From a virus (Duplodnaviria > Heunggongvirae > Uroviricota > Caudoviricetes), in the IMG/VR virus record IMGVR_UViG_2648501392_000012: a DNA stretch of 24,753 nucleotides; one strand, written 5' to 3'. The translations under genes and the position numbers were made by a program. Position 1 is the first letter of the stretch. Each line of letters opens with the position of its first letter. The notes under the pieces were generated by a model. That model saw only the letters and a program-made list of their open reading frames with translations, was not told the DNA's origin and did no database searches. This document shows, in pieces, positions 429 through 15,300 of this stretch.

Positions 429-993
429 ACTTAGATGTCCGTCTATATCAGATGGGCGTCTAAGTTACCAATTCTCGTCTGATGGCTACATACGGCGGTC
501 AGTTTACGCTTACAAAAAGCACTATCGGCATGCACAAAAAAATCTTTAATCGTATTTCTTGTGTCATTAATTGTTTGATGTTCAGATTGTTTTCCTCGCG
601 GGCTGGCGCGCCTCAGAAAGTAAAGCTTGTTGACAGGGGTAAACGTTCGGCAATAATTTTCTGCCGCATGCGGGTGTTGCATAAAACGTGCTACGTTCCT
701 TTATCGACAGGTCAGGTCACCGCTCACCCGCCGACGAGAAAGCAACACTGACATGCTAAAGCAAAAAATAGATGAATAAGTTGAGTTGTGCATATGTAGC
801 CTGACCGTCACAAAGTATATGGTGTCTGTACCAGTAAGATGATGGCCGGACTCTTTAAAAACGAGCTGACCTGCACAATACAGGATGGACTTAGCAATGG
901 CTGCTCCTGGCACAAAGCGGACAGTGATCACCGTTCTTACGACTACTTTCTGACTTCCTTCGTGACTTGCCCTAAGCATGTTGTAGTGCGATA

Positions 994-1019
994 CTTGTAA
1001 TGACATTTGTAATTACAAG
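994..1019 (+). promoter_or_regulatory. relBE operator/promoter palindrome (CTTGTAAT-N-ATTACAAG) immediately upstream of relB
   Basis: Perfect inverted repeat CTTGTAATGACATTTGTAATTACAAG overlapping the Shine-Dalgarno AAGAGGTG 6 nt before the relB ATG; RelB-RelE autoregulation at such an operator is established. Confidence 0.55.
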
Positions 1020-1030
1020 AGGTGTAAGAC

Positions 1031-1270
1031 ATGGGTAGCATTAACCTGCGTATTGACGATGAACTTAAAGCGCGTTCTTACGCCGCGCTTGAAAAAATGG
1101 GTGTAACTCCTTCTGAAGCGCTTCGTCTCATGCTCGAGTATATCGCTGACAATGAACGCTTGCCGTTCAAACAGACACTCCTGAGTGATGAAGATGCTGA
1201 ACTTGTGGAGATAGTGAAAGAACGGCTTCGTAATCCTAAGCCAGTACGTGTGACGCTGGATGAACTCTGA
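1031..1270 (+). CDS. relB: RelB antitoxin (79 aa)
   Basis: Protein MGSINLRIDDELKARSYAALEKMGVTPSEALRLMLEYIADNERLPF... recognised as RelB; length and position match the relBE operon; stop overlaps the relE start (ATGA-type coupling). Confidence 0.93.
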   Translation: MGSINLRIDDELKARSYAALEKMGVTPSEALRLMLEYIADNERLPFKQTLLSDEDAELVEIVKERLRNPKPVRVTLDEL

Positions 1271-1557
1271 TGGCGTATTTTCTGGATTTTGACGAGCGGG
1301 CACTAAAGGAATGGCGAAAGCTGGGCTCGACGGTACGTGAACAGTTGAAAAAGAAGCTGGTTGAAGTACTTGAGTCACCCCGGATTGAAGCAAACAAGCT
1401 CCGTGGTATGCCTGATTGTTACAAGATTAAGCTCCGGTCTTCAGGCTATCGCCTTGTATACCAGGTTATAGACGAGAAAGTTGTCGTTTTCGTGATTTCT
1501 GTTGGGAAAAGAGAACGCTCGGAAGTATATAGCGAGGCGGTCAAACGCATTCTCTGA
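1270..1557 (+). CDS. relE: RelE mRNA-interferase toxin (95 aa)
   Basis: Protein MAYFLDFDERALKEWRKLGSTVREQLKKKLVEVLESPRIEANKLRGMPDCYKIKLRSSGYRLVYQVIDEKVVVFVISVGKRERSEVYSEAVKRIL recognised as RelE. Confidence 0.93.
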   Translation: MAYFLDFDERALKEWRKLGSTVREQLKKKLVEVLESPRIEANKLRGMPDCYKIKLRSSGYRLVYQVIDEKVVVFVISVGKRERSEVYSEAVKRIL

Positions 1558-1628
1558 ACCAAAGCATGACATCTCTGTTTCGCACCGAAGGTGACACTTC
1601 TGCTTTGCGTTGACAGGAGAAGCAGGCT

Positions 1629-1784
1629 ATGAAGCAGCAAAAGGCGATGTTAATCGCCCTGATCGTCATCTGTTTAACCGTCATAGTGACGGCACTGGTA
1701 ACGAGGAAAGACCTCTGCGAGGTACGAATCCGAACCGGCCAGACGGAGGTCGCTGTCTTCACAGCTTACGAACCTGAGGAGTAA
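1629..1784 (+). CDS. hokD: Hok-family small membrane toxin (51 aa), HokD/RelF-like
   Basis: Hand translation (below the 60-aa ORF-track cutoff): MKQQKAMLIALIVICLTVIVTALVTRKDLCEVRIRTGQTEVAVFTAYEPEE*; single TM helix plus conserved Hok C-terminus; 70 nt after relE. Confidence 0.85.
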   Translation: MKQQKAMLIALIVICLTVIVTALVTRKDLCEVRIRTGQTEVAVFTAYEPEE

Positions 1785-1850
1785 GAGACCCGGCGGGGGA
1801 GAAATCCCTCGCCACCTCTGATGTGGCAGGCATCCTCAACGCACCCGCAC

Positions 1851-1882
1851 TTAACCCGCTTCGGCGGGTTTTTGTTTTTATT
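1851..1882 (+). terminator. Rho-independent terminator closing the relB-relE-hokD transcript
   Basis: AACCCGC-TTCG-GCGGGTT stem-loop followed by TTTTTGTTTTTATTTT. Confidence 0.6.
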
Positions 1883-2000
1883 TTCAACGCGTTTGAAGTT
1901 CTGGACGGTGCCGGAATAGAATCAAAAATACTTAAGTAGCGCGCAGGGATAAGAGGGATGGTCCCTTAAAGGGGAGAGCTAATTATCCGGAAGGATTCTG

Positions 2001-2252
2001 ATGATGAACATCGAAGAACTGCGTAAAATTTTTTGTGAAGATGGCCTCTATGCTGTGTGCGTTGAAAATGGAAATCTTGTTAGTCATTACCGCATTATGT
2101 GTTTGCGAAAGAATGGGGCTGCGTTAATTAATTTTGTGGATGCTCGGGTCACGGACGGATTTATCTTGCGCGAAGGTGAGTTTGTCACTTCATTACAGGC
2201 ATTGAAAGAGATCGGAATAAAAGCTGGCTTTTCTGCTTTTTCAGGAGAATAA
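2001..2252 (+). CDS. rem: Rem-like small prophage protein (83 aa)
   Basis: 83-aa ORF MMNIEELRKIFCEDGLYAVCVENGNLVSHYRIM... at the position rem occupies next to hokD in Qin-type prophages; assigned from recalled sequence and context. Confidence 0.65.
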   Translation: MMNIEELRKIFCEDGLYAVCVENGNLVSHYRIMCLRKNGAALINFVDARVTDGFILREGEFVTSLQALKEIGIKAGFSAFSGE

Positions 2253-2318
2253 ACTCATCTACAATCTTGCGCGGGGCTGAACTCCCGCTGAGTAACACCG
2301 TGCCACCGGAGAAAACCG

Positions 2319-2597
2319 ATGGCACGCAACGCAAAATATTACAATTCTGATAATTCGCCCGTTCTTGCCTGCACGCACGGGCGGTATTCTCACGCATTCA
2401 AGTCTGAATGGTTCCAGCACCCTCCATGCACTGCAGAACAGGCCGAATGGCTGATTCATTCTTACCGCAGGCGCGGGTTCGAGGTTAAGAAAGCTCTCAG
2501 TCTCGACTATCGGCACTGGATAATCTCTGTCAGGCTGCCTTATTCCGAACGCCCACCACGTGCGTCCCGCACTTTCCAGCAACGGATCTGGAGGTAA
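2319..2597 (+). CDS. Hypothetical 92-aa protein immediately upstream of ydfU
   Basis: ORF with GGAG 5 nt upstream of ATG, ending 1 nt before the proposed ydfU GTG start; no recognised family; overlapped by an antisense shadow ORF. Confidence 0.35.
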   Translation: MARNAKYYNSDNSPVLACTHGRYSHAFKSEWFQHPPCTAEQAEWLIHSYRRRGFEVKKALSLDYRHWIISVRLPYSERPPRASRTFQQRIWR

Positions 2598-2598
2598 C

Positions 2599-3648
2599 GT
2601 GCGGGTATTACTTAGACCTGTTCTGGTGCCTGAGCTTGGGCTGGTGGTCCTTAAGCCGGGCCGTGAATCCATACAGATATTTCATAATCCTCGAGTGCTG
2701 GTGGAACCGGAACCAAAAAGCATGCGTAATCTGCCATCCGGAGTCGTTCCTGCCGTTCGCCAGCCGCTGGCGGAAGACAAAACATTGCTGCCGTTTTTTA
2801 GTAACGAACGGGTGATTCGTGCTGCTGGCGGCGTTGGCGCATTGTCCGACTGGCTATTACGTCATGTTACATCCTGCCAGTGGCCTAATGGCGATTACCA
2901 TCACACTGAAACAGTCATTCACCGTTATGGTACCGGCGCAATGGTGTTGTGCTGGCACTGCGACAACCAACTGCGTGACCAGACATCGGAATCACTGGAG
3001 CTGCTTGCTCAACAAAATCTGACAGCATGGGTGATTGACGTCATCCGTCACGCAATAAGCGGTACGCAGGAGCGGGAATTATCTTTGGCTGAATTATCCT
3101 GGTGGGCGGTCTGCAATCAGGTGGTGGATGCACTACCTGAGGCTGTATCGCGTCGTTCGCTGGGATTACCAGCGGAAAAAATCTGCTCGGTGTACCGCGA
3201 AAGCGACATCGTACCGGGAGAGCAGACCGCCACCAGCATATTGAAACAACGCACAAAAAATCTTGCACCGTTGCCTTACGCCCACCAGCAACAAAAATCA
3301 CCACAGGAAAAGACGGTGGTAAGCATCACCGTTGATCCAGAGTCTCCGGAATCTTTCATGAAGCTGCCTAAACGTCGCCGCTGGGTTAAGGAGAAATACA
3401 CACGTTGGGTTAAGACACAGCCGTGTGCTTGCTGCGGTATGCCAGCCGACGATCCGCATCATCTGATTGGTCACGGGCAGGGCGGAATGGGAACAAAAGC
3501 ACATGATCTCTTTGTGTTGCCTTTGTGCAGAAAGCATCACAACGAGCTGCATACGGATACAGTGGCATTTGAAGATAAGTATGGCTCCCAACTGGAGCTG
3601 ATATTTCGTTTTATCGATCGCGCGCTGGCAATTGGCGTACTGGCGTAA
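2599..3648 (+). CDS. ydfU: DUF968-family prophage protein (YdfU-like), HNH-like Cys/His C-terminal domain
   Basis: Long ORF with C-terminal CACCGMPADDPHHLIGHGQGGMGTKAHDLFVLPLCRKHHNELH motif; start placed at GTG 2599 (GGAGG 4 nt upstream, 349 aa) rather than the upstream GTG 2560 used by the ORF track. Confidence 0.75.
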   Translation: MRVLLRPVLVPELGLVVLKPGRESIQIFHNPRVLVEPEPKSMRNLPSGVVPAVRQPLAEDKTLLPFFSNERVIRAAGGVGALSDWLLRHVTSCQWPNGDYHHTETVIHRYGTGAMVLCWHCDNQLRDQTSESLELLAQQNLTAWVIDVIRHAISGTQERELSLAELSWWAVCNQVVDALPEAVSRRSLGLPAEKICSVYRESDIVPGEQTATSILKQRTKNLAPLPYAHQQQKSPQEKTVVSITVDPESPESFMKLPKRRRWVKEKYTRWVKTQPCACCGMPADDPHHLIGHGQGGMGTKAHDLFVLPLCRKHHNELHTDTVAFEDKYGSQLELIFRFIDRALAIGVLA

Positions 3649-3661
3649 GTGGAGAACGAGC

Positions 3662-4414
3662 ATGAACCTTGAAGCCTTACCAAAATATTACTCCCCAAAA
3701 TCTCCAAAATTGAGCGATGACGCTCCAGCGACAGGCACCGGTTGTTTAACAATTACGGATGTAATGGCAGCGCAGGGGATGGTGCAGTCGAAAGCACCAC
3801 TTGGGTTGGCCTTATTTCTGGCAAAAGTTGGTGTTCAGGACCCTCAGTTTGCGATTGAAGGCCTGCTAAATTACGCGATGGCACTGGATAACCCGACATT
3901 GAACAAATTGAGTGAAGAAATCCGGTTACAGATTATTCCTTACCTCGTGAGTTTTGCCTTTGCTGATTACTCCAGGTCTGCGGCAAGTAAGGCTCGCTGT
4001 GAGCATTGTTCAGGTACGGGATTTTATAATGTATTGCGCGAAGTGGTGAAACACTACAGACGCGGGGAATCTGTAATCAAGGAAGAATGGGTGAAGGAAC
4101 TATGTCAGCATTGCCATGGTAAGGGCGAAGTCAGCACAGCGTGCAGAGGGTGTAAGGGTAAAGGGATTGTTCTGGATGAAAAAAGAACCCGGTTTCATGG
4201 CGTACCGGTATATAAGATTTGTGGGCGTTGTAATGGAAACCGGTTTAGTCGTTTACCGACCACGCTGGCACGACGTCATGTCCAGAAGCTGGTACCAGAC
4301 CTGACCGATTATCAGTGGTATAAGGGGTATGCGGACGTCATTGGTAAACTGGTAACAAAGTGCTGGCAGGAAGAAGCATACGCGGAAGCGCAATTGAGGA
4401 AGGTGACGAGATAA
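3662..4414 (+). CDS. quuQ: Late-gene antitermination protein Q (250 aa)
   Basis: Multiple CxxC / CxxH zinc-binding motifs (CEHCSGTG, CQHCHGKG, CRGCKGKG, CGRCNG); sits immediately upstream of a promoter/terminator pair and the lysis genes; start at ATG 3662 with GGAG 7 nt upstream. Confidence 0.8.
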   Translation: MNLEALPKYYSPKSPKLSDDAPATGTGCLTITDVMAAQGMVQSKAPLGLALFLAKVGVQDPQFAIEGLLNYAMALDNPTLNKLSEEIRLQIIPYLVSFAFADYSRSAASKARCEHCSGTGFYNVLREVVKHYRRGESVIKEEWVKELCQHCHGKGEVSTACRGCKGKGIVLDEKRTRFHGVPVYKICGRCNGNRFSRLPTTLARRHVQKLVPDLTDYQWYKGYADVIGKLVTKCWQEEAYAEAQLRKVTR

Positions 4415-4445
4415 ATGATTTTTGCTGAAGATGGCGACATGATGT

Positions 4446-4474
4446 TTGCATTTTTCAAAAAATATGGATAAAAT
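4446..4474 (+). promoter_or_regulatory. Putative late promoter PR' (TTGCAT-17 bp-TAAAAT); the Q-utilisation site is expected here
   Basis: -35 TTGCAT 4446..4451, 17-bp spacer, -10 TAAAAT 4469..4474, about 30 nt after the Q stop and ~45 nt before a terminator. Confidence 0.5.
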
Positions 4475-4518
4475 TTTTTCAACGATGGGCTTTGTATACC
4501 CGACGTTAAGAAAAAGTA

Positions 4519-4550
4519 GAAAACCCGCTGATGAGCGGGTTTTGTGCTTT
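4519..4550 (+). terminator. tR'-like rho-independent terminator downstream of PR'
   Basis: AAACCCGC-TGATGA-GCGGGTTT stem-loop followed by a T-rich tract. Confidence 0.6.
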
Positions 4551-4835
4551 AAATGGGGCAATGGTAATGTTGAATCTCATCCCGGGACTCATGTCTGTTA
4601 ACTTATTATTTAGCTGGTGACTTGGTTATTTGCCTGATGTTTAAAATGTTTTCTTCCAGTACAATGTCCCTAAACACAATGAGTCTGCTTATTATATTAT
4701 TAGCAGAGCTATTACGGCCAAAGTACAGCATAAGCTTTTAAAGCCAATCAACCAGTCATCAAGACAGACGGGGTTATTCATAAAAACTCTCCATGTGTGA
4801 TCCGATGGGGCCTGAAATTAAAGCTTTAATATAGC

Positions 4836-5048
4836 TCATGAAAGGTAAACATTGGCAGCTGAAGGGCCACGCAGACCATTTATCCGGCAAAATTCCACGC
4901 GTAATCCGGTGGTAATTTCTTCTGCATCGCGGAGATTGAGCGCTGAAACATGAAGCTGGACATCGATACGACCATCGGATGGGGTGATAAGACCCTTGCC
5001 GCTTTTGCCGTCAAAGGTTTTGACAATTCCTGTCATTTTACGGGACAA
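4836..5048 (-). CDS. cspF: Cold-shock-protein family paralog CspF (70 aa)
   Basis: Protein [38 protein letters not shown]... is a CspA-family cold-shock domain; recognised as CspF. Confidence 0.9.
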
Positions 5049-5348
5049 AAAAATTCCTTAATACTGATAACTTGGCGCACTATACACACGTTCCTGAAGA
5101 AAGCTATAGTTTTTTGATGGGGTTGAAGATGGCTGGATGTCTAAAATAAACATTGCTTCATATGTTCAACTATGCGTTAATGATTGCGTCGGTTTGAAGA
5201 ACAGACGATATACGAAGTAGTTTACTAAAGCAGTTCTCATTTCAGGTGTTATTCACTTATTCCTTCTTTGAGTCTCTCCAATTAAGTACGAAGTCGTTTC
5301 TGTTATGCAAACCATTTATGCCGAAAGGCTCAAGTTAAGGAATGTAGA

Positions 5349-5564
5349 ATGTCAAATAAAATGACTGGTTTAGTAAAATGGTTTAACGCTGATAAAGGTT
5401 TCGGCTTTATTTCTCCTGTTGATGGTAGTAAAGATGTGTTTGTGCATTTTTCTGCGATTCAGAATGATAATTATCGAACCTTATTTGAAGGTCAAAAGGT
5501 TACCTTCTCTATAGAGAGTGGTGCTAAAGGTCCTGCAGCAGCAAATGTCATCATTACTGATTAA
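5349..5564 (+). CDS. cspB: Cold-shock protein CspB (71 aa)
   Basis: Protein [38 protein letters not shown]... with canonical RNP1/RNP2 motifs; divergent from cspF. Confidence 0.9.
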
Positions 5565-5846
5565 AATTCATCGCTCGTCTGTATACGATAACGAAGAAGG
5601 CTGATGCCTGAGTAGAGATACGGACAGAGTAGTGAATATTGGATCTCTTTAATAAAAAGTAAGGAGGTCCAATACATGAAACAATGGCTAGCATATTTGG
5701 CAAAATCTTAATCAGGAAAAGTATGCTAACCATTGTGGTGAAGTGCAGGTTTGCTGCATGAATAGTTTTACAGCAGAAGCTAACTGCTGGCATGGCAAAA
5801 CAAAGTGCGTAAGTGGATGACTCCCACAAAAAGCACCACAATCTCA

Positions 5847-5872
5847 AACCCGCTCAGGCGGGTTTTTTATTA
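5847..5872 (+). terminator. Rho-independent terminator about 280 nt downstream of cspB
   Basis: AACCCGC-TCAG-GCGGGTT followed by TTTTTTATTAT. Confidence 0.6.
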
Positions 5873-5927
5873 TCTGCTTTAAATATATTATTAAAATATA
5901 AAAAATACTTGTTACTAATAAAATCAA

Positions 5928-6098
5928 TCAGGCTACAGCTTTAAGATTTGTCTGGAATACTTTGTTGCAATGAGGGCAGATCAAAAGGGCACCTTTTTGT
6001 ACTCTTGAAAAACTGTGTTCTGACTCTTGGGTGCAGTTTGGGCAGGAACATTTAACGAGATAATTACGGCGTGATTTTGAGTTTTTACGTTCTGACAT
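5928..6098 (-). CDS. Small Cys4 zinc-ribbon protein (56 aa), possibly the Qin small protein YnfU
   Basis: MSERKNSKSRRNYLVKCSCPNCTQESEHSFSRVQKGALLICPHCNKVFQTNLKAVA; two CxxC pairs (CPNC...CPHC); AGGAAA 6 nt upstream of the internal ATG (the ORF track shows a longer 73-aa version). Confidence 0.5.
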   Translation of the reverse strand: MSERKNSKSRRNYLVKCSCPNCTQESEHSFSRVQKGALLICPHCNKVFQTNLKAVA

Positions 6099-6317
6099 AG
6101 GCTTTTCCTGTATAAATGGCCGTATACAGTACACTAAATATGAAAACATTTCTCGTATTATTATTTTATATATGACTTTCTTTCAAAATAATTACCCACA
6201 TTTTTAATGTGTATGTTTTTTTAGCGCCGTTGAGAACAACGTGTGCTGTCAAAACTACCCCGTAGACTCCGATCTTTTCAAACATATTGCACCATCCGTG
6301 TACATCGGGGTGAGGAT

Positions 6318-6533
6318 ATGAAATCAATGGATAAGTTAACAACAGGTGTTGCCTATGGCACATCGGCGGGTAATGCTGGTTTCTGGGCATTGCAGTTACT
6401 CGATAAAGTAACTCCGTCACAGTGGGCTGCAATCGGTGTGCTGGGTAGCCTGGTTTTTGGCCTGCTGACGTATCTGACAAATCTTTATTTCAAGATTAAA
6501 GAAGACAGGCGTAAGGCTGCGAGAGGAGAGTAA
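6318..6533 (+). CDS. essQ: Class II holin, phage-21 S-type (pinholin) with dual-start motif MKSM
   Basis: [71 protein letters not shown]; two TM segments and a charged C-terminus; Met1/Met4 give antiholin/holin forms as in S21. Confidence 0.85.
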
Positions 6534-6537
6534 TCCA

Positions 6538-6845
6538 ATGACTCAAGACTATGAACTGGTTGTGAAAGGAGTCCGTAATTTTGAGAATAAAGTTACGGTA
6601 ACTGTAGCCTTACAGGACAAAGAACGCTTTGACGGTGAAATTTTTGACCTGGATGTCGCCATGGACCGTGTTGAAGGAGCTGCGCTGGAGTTTTATGAGG
6701 CAGCAGCCAGAAGGAGCGTCCGGCAAGTCTTCCTGGAAGTAGCAGAAAAATTGTCAGAAAAAGTTGAGTCTTATCTGCAGCATCAGTACTCCTTTAAGAT
6801 TGAAAATCCTGCCAATAAGCACGAGCGTCCTCATCATAAATATCT

Positions 6846-6849
<4 letters not shown>
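6538..6849 (+). CDS. ydfR: YdfR-like DUF1327 protein (103 aa) between holin and endolysin
   Basis: 103-aa ORF tightly packed between holin and endolysin (4-nt overlap with the endolysin start). Confidence 0.75.
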
Positions 6850-7873
<1,024 letters not shown>

Positions 7874-8234
7874 GGTAATATTAAATCGGAACATTTACAT
7901 CGCGGAATGTAAAATTTGAATAAAAAGGACTCTTCCATGAGCCAAAATTCCTGAAATCTTAAGGGTAAGATAAAAGGTCTTAATCAGAATGACACGTTTT
8001 ATTAATAAATAAAGCTATTCTTTCATTGCTGTGTTTTTCTTTACAAAAGTAATCCTTGCTATGGGTGGTTAATCATGCGTTAATGGTGTTCTGGTTTGTT
8101 ACAAATTTATCTGAAGCAGTCATTGTTATAATTTTATTATTTGTACCTCTTGAGATTTCCTTGTTGGTTTTTCTCTCTGATATTTTTTTCGGACCATTCT
8201 GCCCAAGGGCTAATTTCTTCAAAAGGTAATAATT

Positions 8235-8447
8235 ATGTCTAATAAAATGACTGGTTTAGTGAAATGGTTTAACCCTGAAAAAGGTTTTGGTTTCATCACG
8301 CCGAAAGATGGCAGCAAAGATGTGTTTGTCCATTTCTCAGCAATTCAGAGCAACGATTTCAAAACATTAACTGAGAATCAGGAAGTTGAATTTGGTATTG
8401 AGAACGGACCTAAAGGTCCTGCCGCTGTTCATGTAGTGGCGCTTTGA
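8235..8447 (+). CDS. cspI: Cold-shock protein CspI (70 aa)
   Basis: [70 protein letters not shown]. Confidence 0.9.
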
Positions 8448-8535
8448 GGTAGACAATATTACAAACCATATTCACTTTAGATGCCCGTGTTGTCATGGTT
8501 CCCAGTATAGAACATCATCTTTTGATGTTTCTGAC

Positions 8536-8646
8536 ATGAATCCTTTCGGGGCAAAATGTATCTTTTGTAAATCAATGATGATTACATTTGATAATATTTC
8601 ACAATACTTAAATGCCAGCCGTCTGTCGTTGGATTTAAAAAAGTGA
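8536..8646 (+). CDS. Short reading frame (36 aa from ATG) that is the C-terminal half of a start-less Cys4 zinc-ribbon frame open from 8437
   Basis: Frame reads ...RCPCCHGSQYRTSSFDVSDMNPFGAKCIFCKSMMITFDNISQYLNASRLSLDLKK*; the first CxxC pair lies upstream of the only in-frame ATG; followed by a hairpin terminator. Confidence 0.3.
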   Translation: MNPFGAKCIFCKSMMITFDNISQYLNASRLSLDLKK

Positions 8647-8649
8647 AAA

Positions 8650-8677
8650 TGAAGGCTCCTTCGGGAGCTTTTTTGCT
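8650..8677 (+). terminator. Putative rho-independent terminator after the cspI / zinc-ribbon unit
   Basis: GGCTCC-TTCG-GGAGCT stem followed by TTTTTTG. Confidence 0.45.
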
Positions 8678-8718
8678 TGGTGTCTATTCGATGGATACTC
8701 ACATACTACGGTAACATC

Positions 8719-8949
8719 ATGAAAAAAATCATAGTTTTTTTTAACTCTGAACCAGCAGTGGTAGTGCCAGCGATGACTGGAGTTAACACCATCATGCGTG
8801 AATATCCAAATGGCGAAAAAACACACCTTACTGTAATGGCCGCAGGGTTTCCATCTCTGACCGGAGATCATAAAGTCATTTATGTAGCCGCGGATCGACA
8901 TGTTACTTCAGAAGAAATTCTGGAAGCAGCAATAAGGCTCTTGAGTTGA
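8719..8949 (+). CDS. Hypothetical 76-aa protein
   Basis: ORF MKKIIVFFNSEPAVVVPAMTGVNTIMREYPNGEKTHLTVMAAGFPSLTGDHKVIYVAADRHVTSEEILEAAIRLLS; weak ribosome-binding site; no recognised family. Confidence 0.35.
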   Translation: MKKIIVFFNSEPAVVVPAMTGVNTIMREYPNGEKTHLTVMAAGFPSLTGDHKVIYVAADRHVTSEEILEAAIRLLS

Positions 8950-9120
8950 TTTGATGCTATTGCATTGATAATTCAGGAAAATTCTCTTTGTCTGTTTGTG
9001 TAAAATTTAGACTATCGTATGTTGATTATTGCGATGTTTCATCTTATCTTTTACACGTTTGCACCATATAATCGACTTACTGTGTAACTGGAAAGTCATA
9101 ACAGACTAAAAGAGGAAATG

Positions 9121-9293
9121 ATGAATATTGAAGACTTAAAAACAAAAGCAGAAGCAGATATTTCTGAATATATAACAAAAAAATTATTGAACTTAAGAAA
9201 AAGACCGGGAAAGAAGTTACCAGTATTCAGTTTACCGCACGGGAAAAAATGACGGGTCTTGAAAGCTATGATGTCAAGATTAATTTAATCTGA
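9121..9293 (+). pseudogene. gnsB: gnsB/gnsA-like gene split by an apparent 1-nt frameshift
   Basis: Frame 1: MNIEDLKTKAEADISEYITKKLLNLRKRPGKK... stops at 9250..9252; a second frame continues ...KEVTSIQFTAREKMTGLESYDVKINLI* to 9293, matching the Gns C-terminus (FTAREKMTGLESYDVKI); the shift falls in an A-rich run near 9200..9215. Confidence 0.5.
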
Positions 9294-9444
9294 TGTATTC
9301 AATAATAAAATTTATCCATAAACCTCGTTTTTACGGGGTTTTGTTATATTTGAATGGTTCCGAATATCTAAATCACAATTGTTGATGGTTTTTATTAAAC
9401 CAATGCAGTCCGGCTCAGGAGTGAGAGAAGCCGGACGTTATGGT

Positions 9445-9891
9445 TTAGCGTGGTAAGATCTGTGTAGTTTTCTGGATGCTTTCAGTAATTTTCTGGATGC
9501 TTTCAGTAAATAGTAATGAGTTATCAAAGGCATAGTAATATCTTTGGTGTTCCTGGATATTTGTAACCCATCGGAAAACTCCTGCTTTAGCAAGATTTTC
9601 CCTGTATTGTTGAAATGTGATTTCTTTTGATTTCAACTTATTATAGGAGGTCTCTATAAGATGTTTGTTTCTGGAGAATTTAACATTTACAACCTTTTTG
9701 AGTCCTTTTACTAACACTATGTTGTCGTTTTCTAACACAATGTGAATATTATCTGTGGCTAAATAGTAAATATAAAGTGAGACATTGTGACGTTTTAGCT
9801 CAGAATAAAATAATTCACAGTTTAAATCTTTACGCACTTGATCGAATATTTCTTTAAAAATGGCAGCCTGAGCCATTGGTAAACCTTCCAT
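9445..9891 (-). CDS. ydfO: YdfO-like DUF1398 protein (148 aa) with an internal 7-codon tandem duplication near the C-terminus
   Basis: Protein ...[44 protein letters not shown]; assigned from recalled YdfO sequence and Qin gene order. Confidence 0.7.
9468..9509. repeat. Perfect 21-bp tandem duplication (TTTTCTGGATGCTTTCAGTAA x2) inside the ydfO-like gene
   Basis: Counted directly: 9468..9488 is identical to 9489..9509; in-frame, giving [14 protein letters not shown]. Confidence 0.9.
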
Positions 9892-10176
9892 GTGATACGA
9901 TGGCGCGTAGTTAGCATTATCGTGTTTATTGTTTCAATCTGGTCTGACCTCTTTGTGTTTTGTTGATGATTTATGTCAAATATTAAGCCTGTTTTTAATG
10001 AATAGTGTTGATTGCGTAACAAAATTGAGCCTTGCTGGCATCCAGGAGGGATATGCAACCGACAGATGTATGTAAGGTCGATGTACTCAAACTTTCATAC
10101 TTTTCCTCTTTTATGCAGTAAGATTTGAAGTAATATTTTAACCGCTAGATGACGAGCAAACGCATGGAGCGACAAA

Positions 10177-13792: not shown

Positions 13793-15300
13793 TGGCAATT
13801 CTTGATGATGTGATTGGCGTTTTTTCACCAGGATGGAAAGCAGCAAGGCTGCGTTCCCGTGCGGTGATCCAGGCTTATGAGGCCGTAAAAACGACGCGGA
13901 CACACAAAGCCCGACGGGAGAACCGAACTGCCGACCAGTTAAGCCAGTACGGGGCCGTGTCGTTACGTGAGCAGGCCCGTTACCTTGATAACAACCACGA
14001 TCTGGTTATTGGTGTATTTGACAAGCTGGAAGAACGGGTGGTGGGGAAAAACGGGATTATTGTCGAGCCACATCCGGTATTACGCAATGGGGCCATTGCC
14101 CGTGACCTGGCTGCGGAGATTCGCACCCGATGGAGTGAATGGTCTGTCAGCCCGGAAGTCACCGGGCAGTTTACCCGTCCGATGCTGGAACGTCTGATGC
14201 TTCGTACCTGGCTGCGCGATGGTGAGGTGTTTGCCCAGATGGTTTCCGGGCGCATAAACAGCCTGGCGCCTTCTGCCGGTGTTCATTTCTGGCTGGAGGC
14301 GCTCGAGCCGGACTTTATTCCCATGACCAGTGATGAGAGCAACAGGCTGAATCAGGGCGTGTTTGTTGATGACTGGGGGCGTCCCGAAAAATATCTGGTG
14401 TATAAAAGCCGTCCCGTATCCGGACGGCAGATGGAAACCAAAGAAGTGGATGCAGAGCGAATGCTGCATCTTAAATTTGTTCGCCGTCTGCACCAGATGC
14501 GCGGGACGTCTTTGTTGTCCGGTGTGCTGATCCGCCTCAGTGCCCTGAAAGAATATGAAGATTCTGAGCTGACTGCAGCAAGGATCGCCGCTGCTCTGGG
14601 GATGTACATCCGGAAAGGCGACGGGCAGAGCTATGAACCGGATGGTAATGGCAGAAAGGAGAATGAACGTGAGCTTACCATTCAGCCGGGCATTATTTAC
14701 GACGATCTGAAACCCGGCGAAGAAATCGGAATGGTGAAGTCGGATCGCCCCAATCCTAACCTTGAAACTTTTCGTAATGGTCAGTTGCGTGCCGTGGCGG
14801 CGGGCAGTCGTCTGAGTTTTTCCAGTACAGCGCGCAACTATAACGGCACTTACAGCGCCCAGCGTCAGGAGCTGGTTGAATCCACTGATGGCTACCTGAT
14901 CCTGCAGGACTGGTTTATTGGTGCCGTCACCCGCCCGATGTATCGTGCATGGCTGAAACAGGCTGTGGCATCCGGTGTTATCAGGCTACCCCGCGATCTT
15001 GACCGTTCTTCACTGTATACCGCGGTGTATTCCGGACCAGTGATGCCGTGGATTGACCCTGTTAAGGAGGCTGAGGCCTGGAAAATCCAGATTCGTGGTG
15101 GAGCGGCGACAGAATCAGACTGGGTACGTGCTGGTGGTCGTAATCCGGATGATGTCAAACGTCGGCGCAAGGCCGAAATTGATGAAAACCGCAAGCTGGA
15201 TCTGGTATTTGATACCGATCCGGCCAGTGATAAAGGAGGCAGTAGTGCCGCAACGAAACGACAGGAGCCGCAGCACACCGACGACCAGTCCGAAGAATAA
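13792..15300 (+). CDS. Portal protein, lambda gpB family
   Basis: 502-aa ORF from ATG 13792, overlapping the gpW stop (TGATG); size and position match lambda portal. Confidence 0.85.
   Translation: MAILDDVIGVFSPGWKAARLRSRAVIQAYEAVKTTRTHKARRENRTADQLSQYGAVSLREQARYLDNNHDLVIGVFDKLEERVVGKNGIIVEPHPVLRNGAIARDLAAEIRTRWSEWSVSPEVTGQFTRPMLERLMLRTWLRDGEVFAQMVSGRINSLAPSAGVHFWLEALEPDFIPMTSDESNRLNQGVFVDDWGRPEKYLVYKSRPVSGRQMETKEVDAERMLHLKFVRRLHQMRGTSLLSGVLIRLSALKEYEDSELTAARIAAALGMYIRKGDGQSYEPDGNGRKENERELTIQPGIIYDDLKPGEEIGMVKSDRPNPNLETFRNGQLRAVAAGSRLSFSSTARNYNGTYSAQRQELVESTDGYLILQDWFIGAVTRPMYRAWLKQAVASGVIRLPRDLDRSSLYTAVYSGPVMPWIDPVKEAEAWKIQIRGGAATESDWVRAGGRNPDDVKRRRKAEIDENRKLDLVFDTDPASDKGGSSAATKRQEPQHTDDQSEE

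Follow-up and report, generated by a model that had tools for sequence, protein, structure and literature searches.

The window, that is, the whole 24,753-nt stretch of DNA that was analysed, carries behind the cold shock gene cspI a reading frame of 70 codons, which is closed upstream by a TAG (8434-8436) and runs open from 8437 to a TGA at 8644-8646. This frame is +1 relative to that of cspI and overlaps the last three cspI codons. It encodes the cysteine motifs HFRCPCCHGSQYRTS and GAKCIFCK, and the only ATG, GTG or TTG that the list of open reading frames gives for it is the ATG at 8536, which would yield a 36-aa product without the first cysteine cluster. A second ATG (8481-8483) lies one base off the frame and opens an ORF of nine codons, MPVLSWFPV and a stop. 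The main features had been described in the original prediction, which reported a zinc-ribbon frame open from 8437, with its only in-frame ATG after the first CxxC pair, an out-of-frame ATG at 8481 and a hairpin terminator behind the stop, and direct reading and folding of the DNA confirmed each of these features (Table 1). The start-less frame is, in fact, the already described Escherichia coli gene ynfQ, and nothing in it is broken. It is a real and intact gene because translation, as placed by comparative evidence, begins at the rare codon ATT.

Table 1. Coordinates, strand and source of the features at and near the ynfQ locus
Feature	Position in window	Strand	Source or remark
ynfU, 56-aa CxxC...CxxC 'putative zinc-binding protein'	5931-6098	-	PF23499
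cspA-type thermoregulator mRNA element	8090-8474	+	Rfam RF01766
cspI, first cistron, 70-aa cold shock protein	8235-8447	+	ORF list, RefSeq, NCBIfam Csp models
TGAGG, cspI stop TGA overlapping ynfQ Shine-Dalgarno GAGG	8445-8449	+	8 nt from AGG to start
ATT initiation codon of ynfQ	8458-8460	+	First codon of RefSeq CDS WP_071524604.1
ynfQ CDS, 62 aa, YmcF-like family	8458-8646	+	RefSeq WP_071524604.1, Pfam PF23641
ynfQ Cys9 and Cys12 codons	8482-8493	+	Translation
Internal in-frame ATG, Met27 of ynfQ, not a conserved start	8536-8538	+	ORF list, 80-locus comparison
ynfQ Cys34 and Cys37 codons	8557-8568	+	Translation
ynfR, 21 aa	8649-8714	+	RefSeq annotation
Intrinsic terminator (predicted), 9-bp stem and UUCG loop, then T6 tract	8651-8678	+	Folding
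ynfN, intact 76-codon ORF	8719-8949	+	T-run ending at 8735

A 521-nt stretch around the gene (8200-8720) has matches in 2,145 of the 5,426 complete E. coli genomes, and 1,575 records match it at 99% identity or above. It differs from K-12 MG1655 at a single position, a synonymous one in cspI, so that ynfQ is identical in the two. The K-12 record shows cspI, ynfQ, ynfR and ynfN as consecutive CDSs over this stretch, and the ynfQ product is labelled 'cold-shock protein' there and 'cold shock small protein YmcF' in other records. Given the genome matches, the identity with K-12 and the clear purifying selection on the frame across Enterobacteriaceae, the ynfQ frame is, as judged from the sequences compared, neither a chance frame nor a sequencing error. 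The gene was described in 2017 by D'Lima et al. (J Proteome Res 16:3722). Their proteomics of cold-shocked cells reportedly found YmcF and YnfQ to be cold-shock-induced microproteins, and mutagenesis is said to have mapped the ATT start codon of each. A full-text search of other literature for a stated ATT start of ynfQ found none. Elsewhere, ynfQ is listed as a cold-shock-induced gene of the Qin prophage (PMC11228462; PMC11551758).

The name ynfQ has been used twice. The 'ynfQ' of VanOrsdel 2018 is a different, 37-aa ORF between ydfJ and ydfK (PMC6001520), which is now called ynfT and lies at about 13899-14012 in K-12 coordinates. The data on that ORF were therefore rejected as evidence for the cspI-linked ynfQ, although the YnfR result of the study is still relevant: tagged YnfR (YnfR-SPA) could be seen in cells, and its level went up strongly upon cold shock (PMC6001520). 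The clash between ynfQ and ynfT could mislead text mining.

Only positions 510-9954 of the window are colinear with the Qin prophage of K-12, at 98.8% identity. From about 10.9 kb onwards there are large lambdoid ORFs (699, 526, 739 and 1031 aa) that presumably encode terminase, portal and tail proteins; nothing colinear with them is present in the K-12 stretch used for comparison. Thus, the window represents a more complete Qin-like prophage of another strain. The cassette, with the ynfQ ORF or a relative of it, also turned up in nine phages that have been sequenced, among them Tritos, 2H10, mEp460_ev081 and HannyBb. The ORF is unannotated in six of the nine matching phage records (H32-H35, H37 and H39), presumably because gene callers disallow ATT starts.

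The cspI-ynfQ transcript

The unit consists, in order, of a cspA-type thermosensor leader, cspI, a 10-nt spacer with a Shine-Dalgarno sequence, the AUU-started ynfQ and an intrinsic terminator. The leader was recognized by the Rfam model RF01766 (score 115.7 bits, gathering score 78, E 1.5e-30; positions 1-428 of the model), whose match spans the cspI 5' leader and coding region together with the ribosome-binding site and start codon of ynfQ. This model covers the whole cspA mRNA, and its terminal terminator hairpin is without a counterpart in the match. ynfQ sits between the csp stop codon and the terminator and is, in effect, inserted there.

The terminator hairpin, GAAGGCUCC-UUCG-GGAGCUUUU, occupies 8651-8672 and its T6 tract 8669-8674. 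The predicted folding energy is -12.4 kcal/mol (z = -2.56), and one of 200 shuffled sequences folds as well. A GC-rich hairpin followed by a U tract, as in Rho-independent terminators, is thus predicted from folding at this site. A promoter/terminator scanner reported this hairpin on the minus strand only; the plus-strand terminator was confirmed by folding. Among 80 related loci, 50 have a hairpin and T-run 0-9 nt after the stop codon of the YmcF-like gene, and the hairpin sequences are unrelated. Because the position of the terminator is kept despite unrelated sequences, the arrangement of csp, ymcF-like gene and terminator is a conserved design. In most loci, the stop codon of csp is found 12-13 nt ahead of the YmcF-like start.

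The presence of this hairpin after the ynfQ stop, and the conservation of its position, bear out the earlier proposal of a terminator common to cspI and the zinc-ribbon frame. The accompanying idea that the unit was once expressed falls short, as it is expressed now: cspI, ynfQ and ynfN were co-regulated in RNA-seq (PMC11228462). Induction by AZT amounted to 6.5-fold for cspI, 5.9-fold for ynfQ and 5.8-fold for ynfN, and the dependence on LexA and SspA was closely similar for cspI and ynfQ and broadly similar for ynfN (PMC11228462). Butanol co-represses cspG, cspH, cspI, ymcF and ynfQ (PMC11728337). Cold-shock induction of ynfQ is indicated indirectly, by its place on the cspI transcript behind a cspA-type thermoregulator and by the label 'cold shock induced' that it carries in PMC11228462.

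The csp promoter and leader region also contains a conserved ATCATGCGTTAATG box, which lies at about 8066-8085 in the window. This box is kept upstream of YmcF-like genes even where there is no csp ORF (L017-L025, L040, L076 and L080). YmcF-like genes without csp therefore seem to keep the cold-shock leader.

Directly downstream, ynfR begins 3 nt beyond the ynfQ stop codon, and the terminator hairpin is formed by its codons 1-8. It occurs only in loci of the E. coli/Shigella type (L002-L006, including that of E. ruysiae and that of a contig labelled Veillonella). A ribosome that translates ynfR, or that terminates at the end of ynfQ, would cover the 5' arm of the hairpin, so that read-through into ynfN and gnsB could be under the control of translation or of Csp antitermination. 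The K-12 copy of ynfN has one T fewer in a T-run (ending at 8735 in the window) and is marked as frameshifted by PGAP.

Start codon of ynfQ

The start codon was compared in 80 loci, one genome per species, by direct reading of the DNA, and in ten further loci from other genera, 90 loci altogether. The codon homologous to 8458 is ATT in 60, ATG in 16 and ATC in 4 of the 80 loci, and ATT in 4 and ATG in 6 of the ten others, so that all 90 have ATT, ATC or ATG at this position. From this codon on, the entropy at the three codon positions is 0.43, 0.28 and 1.24 bits (77 distinct sequences). The three-base periodicity of conservation begins exactly at the 8458 codon; upstream of it, the variable position tracks the csp frame. 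An AGG precedes the homologous start in all 80 loci, at a distance of 8 nt in 73 and of 7 nt in 7, with zero entropy at positions -11 and -9 from the start, and shares bases with the csp stop codon (T[GA]AGG). The ATT at 8458 is also at the position where the annotated YmcF and YnfQ start, the ATT start being, on comparative evidence, a trait of this family. On these grounds, ynfQ translation is placed at ATT 8458.

The comparison with homologous loci, which had been suggested as a way of finding the start, thus located it at the equivalent of 8458, where the coding signal begins. Between the two explanations that the original prediction had left standing, it favoured the non-canonical start, which agrees with RefSeq and with all 90 loci, over a 1-nt indel with an ancestral ATG at 8481. 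According to the latter, an indel near 8478-8485 had separated this ATG from a frame that is no longer translated. The absence of any ATG, GTG or TTG upstream of the first cysteine pair and the displacement of ATG 8481 by just one base agree with such a history. However, ATG 8481 is a by-product of the codons AGA-TGC for Arg8-Cys9, where other loci have CGN or AGG for Arg8, and an out-of-frame ATG of this type is found in 27 of the 80 loci because it is formed only where Arg8 is AGA or CGA. Initiation there would delete Cys9, the first cysteine of the CxxC pair, and codons 1-8, which lie upstream, are under purifying selection. The same sequence occurs, moreover, in K-12 and in more than 1,500 genomes, and the family is 62 aa long across many genera. 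The comparative data on the start codon, on selection and on the frequency of the 8481-type ATG refute the pseudogene, which retains hardly any probability.

The 36-aa peptide from ATG 8536, with the upstream cysteine pair untranslated, is a very improbable product, although this ATG is the sole canonical start in the frame and the piece matches the C-terminal half of PF23641 with 44.9 bits. Met27 is found in only 4 of the 80 loci, residue 27 being mostly Lys or Arg elsewhere, whereas residues 6-20, HFRCPCCHGSQYRTS, are the best-conserved part of the family, and variation confined to third positions begins 26 codons upstream of ATG 8536. The converse pattern, a conserved 36-aa form with an unconserved upstream CxxC, had been named as the finding that would count against the zinc-ribbon frame; the upstream CxxC is invariant or nearly so. 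Family conservation and the rarity of Met27 rule out the 36-aa product as the conserved form. A minor isoform may arise from this internal start in Qin-type alleles.

Initiation at another near-cognate codon was also considered, in particular at the second ATT (8470, codon 5), which would give 58 aa. Codon 5 is ATT, ATC or ATA in 71 of the 80 loci, as such a start would need, but it is CTC (Leu) in nine ymcF loci of the E. coli group, and the substitution by ATG is found at codon 1 and never at codon 5. A start at 8470 is further disfavoured because the conserved AGG, at 19-20 nt, would be too far away. The 80-locus comparison of codon 5 rules it out, and the chance that it is used as the start is very small.

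Finally, YnfQ could be made as a C-terminal extension of CspI, by programmed frameshift or by read-through of the stop codon. The overlap of the ynfQ frame with the last three cspI codons would allow this, and in many loci the frame is open for 29-94 codons upstream into csp. In many others, however, in-frame stops occur 3-7 codons upstream, and the csp stop is at -13 in most loci and at -12, in frame, in the Kosakonia group. An adjacent csp is missing altogether from 34 of the 90 loci. The varying frame relation and the frequent absence of csp rule out the fusion, and its probability is negligible. Taken as a whole, the observations are best explained, with high confidence, by a functional and already described ynfQ of a Qin-type lambdoid prophage, which is the second cistron after cspI and has its AUU start at 8458.

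Three enterobacterial csp/ymcF-like loci (L003, L053 and L077) were found in contigs labelled Veillonella parvula MAG, Mucilaginibacter MAG and Chryseobacterium. YnfQ of L003 is identical to that of the window, and L053 and L077 are of other enterobacterial types; these labels are probably due to mis-binning or contamination.

The YnfQ protein

YnfQ scores 109.9 bits with the Pfam family PF23641 (YmcF-like; cut-off 27), its residues 1-62 aligning with profile positions 1-62 of 62, and the family motifs HFRCPCCHGSQYRTS and GAKCIFCK are all present. A database search returned 131 homologues, mostly of exactly 62 aa. Among their names is 'cold shock small protein YmcF', and the genera represented include Escherichia, Citrobacter, Salmonella, Klebsiella, Raoultella, Kosakonia, Yokenella, Leclercia and Enterobacter. 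Among 28 diverse members, C9, P10, C12, G14, S15, Q16, R18, S20 and C37 are invariant, and H6, R8, C11, H13, Y17 and C34 are conserved in at least 90%. The NCBIfam model NF047912 (ECs_2282 family putative zinc-binding protein) was rejected as an assignment, with 17.8 bits against a cut-off of 37.

An AF2 model from the 28-sequence alignment has a mean pLDDT of 73.5, with 86-90 over residues 11-40 and less than 50 after residue 55. In it, the Cys-knuckle region has short strands (7-8, 17-19 and 32-34), and a poorly conserved helix (44-60) forms the C-terminal part. Two CxxC knuckles, CPCC and CIFC, lie within the short-strand region of this model, as is characteristic of zinc ribbons, and the earlier reading of the frame as a Cys4 protein with two knuckles is upheld by C9-P-C-C12 and C34-I-F-C37. 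A Foldseek search of the PDB with the model gave no significant match (best E 0.52, TM about 0.38). The best matches, none of them significant, were all zinc ribbons, namely the TFIIE-alpha finger, archaeal and eukaryotic ribosomal zinc-ribbon proteins, NrdR and the N-domain of MqsA. Similarly, a PDB sequence search with YnfQ gave nothing significant and found no relative.

The sequence CPCCHGSQY (within YnfQ residues 6-18, window 8473-8511) resembles the Rieske box II sequence CPCHGSQY of cytochrome b6f iron-sulfur subunits. This resemblance was the best match in a PDB profile search, over 14 residues with an E of 0.04.

The N-terminal part of YnfQ, about 40 residues, most likely forms two Cys knuckles that hold one predicted metal ion, and this metal is probably zinc. 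In a 2026 review, YnfQ is modelled as a rubredoxin-like miniprotein, and iron, as in rubredoxin, may be the alternative to zinc (PMC13348028). The family may also have an Fe or Fe-S ligand set, as it conserves five cysteines and two histidines, which is more than a Cys4 zinc site needs. YnfQ thus looks like a single-metal Cys4 knuckle protein, which matched no solved family significantly. Like the Cys4 zinc-ribbon and rubredoxin-knuckle miniproteins, such as the TFIIE-alpha finger, the N-terminal ribbon of NrdR and the N-domain of MqsA, it has two CxxC knuckles, here 21 residues apart. Unlike them, it has the extra conserved residues Cys11, His6 and His13 and the C-terminal helix.

The closest known counterpart of YnfQ is YmcF, the E. 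coli K-12 paralogue encoded downstream of cspG, with which it shares 63-66% identity. Both proteins are 62 aa long and have the same Cys/His pattern. Both genes have an ATT start, which a 10-nt spacer sets apart from the csp stop codon, and in both this stop codon overlaps the Shine-Dalgarno sequence; the ymcF locus (L056) also has a terminator directly after the gene. In contrast to ymcF, ynfQ lies in the moron region of a lambdoid prophage, between the lysis genes and the terminase, and is followed by ynfR and ynfN, both of which the ymcF locus lacks.

The same prophage contains a second small metal-knuckle gene, ynfU, next to the csp genes cspB and cspF. Like YnfQ, YnfU is small, is predicted to bind metal and has csp genes as neighbours; unlike YnfQ, it belongs to another Pfam family and has a canonical ATG start. 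No similarity was detectable when the sequences of the two were compared. In Shimwellia blattae (L089), a gene of the YnfU family directly adjoins a YmcF-like gene and csp.

Start codon and csp adjacency

The start codons of the YmcF-like genes are not distributed evenly with respect to csp. Fifty-six loci have an adjacent csp. ATT or ATC is the start in 55 of them, behind an intact csp that ends 12-13 nt upstream, and ATG in one. Without an adjacent csp, it is ATG in 21 of 34 loci and ATT in 13. The csp-less loci with ATG belong to Klebsiella/Raoultella, Enterobacter/Leclercia/Silvania, Kluyvera and K. quasipneumoniae. Those with ATT belong to Pseudescherichia, Atlantibacter, Shimwellia and one locus of C. 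freundii; Pseudescherichia, Atlantibacter and the C. freundii locus are exceptions to the coupling proposed below. The sole ATG locus with an adjacent csp is that of C. sedlakii (L011), where a degenerate csp is fused in frame.

In this C. sedlakii locus (1297-1686), the fused csp has KEF for KWF and VPS for VHF, and the ATG of the YmcF-like ORF is at the usual start position. In three Klebsiella/Raoultella loci (L028, L041 and L046), a csp pseudogene lies about 300 nt upstream of the YmcF-like gene. These remnants are frame-broken (for example, ...WFYLKWF...DVFV...AVVNVVA), and the YmcF-like gene is kept, with an ATG start.

The association between start codon and csp adjacency gives a Fisher p of 1e-10 for raw loci and of about 0.01-0.04 at the lineage level, both uncorrected for phylogeny, and it rests on about 4-5 independent evolutionary events. 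It is the only point of this analysis that may be new, and it suggests that the weak ynfQ start depends on translational coupling to csp.

The classic AUU-started genes of E. coli are infC, which encodes IF3, and pcnB. As compared with these, the AUU start of ynfQ alternates with AUC in relatives and, as in infC, the preceding cistron ends a few nucleotides before it; the thrS-infC junction has been modelled as UAA GGU AUU (PMC3592434). The likeness to infC is in the AUU codon itself, control by IF3 being known for genes of the infC type. In contrast to infC, ynfQ is cold-induced and codes for a small protein unrelated to translation factors.

An AUU start on a cold-induced gene is counter-intuitive, because mRNAs with an AUU start are translated poorly and are weak competitors, above all in vitro at low temperature (PMC5499595). 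For second cistrons close behind a stop codon, on the other hand, about half of the initiations come from re-initiating ribosomes (PMC3592434). In view of these two results, the weak codon may, through coupling, either be tolerated or even set a low ratio of YnfQ to Csp. At least part of the initiation at AUU would then come from ribosomes that finish the heavily translated csp cistron and re-initiate 10 nt downstream, with the Shine-Dalgarno sequence overlapping the csp stop. The weak start would hold YnfQ far below CspI, and YnfQ synthesis would possibly be sensitive to IF3 during cold adaptation. Where csp decays or is lost, selection would change the start to AUG, as may have happened in Klebsiella/Raoultella, Enterobacter/Leclercia/Silvania, Kluyvera and the C. 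sedlakii fusion. As a joint reading, that AUU or AUC is kept by coupling to csp, that this fixes a low YnfQ:Csp ratio and that the start turns to AUG on decay or loss of csp is a tentative proposal, possible but somewhat doubtful.

In cold-exposed cells, YnfQ, whose gene neighbours that of a Csp RNA chaperone, would bind a metal and be a putative partner of nucleic acid or of the machinery for translation or transcription. For annotation, ynfQ is an example of the real genes that are missed by ORF finders limited to ATG, GTG and TTG. The relation between start codon and csp context offers a small, cheap and testable way into the question why AUU starts persist in a few genes of bacteria.
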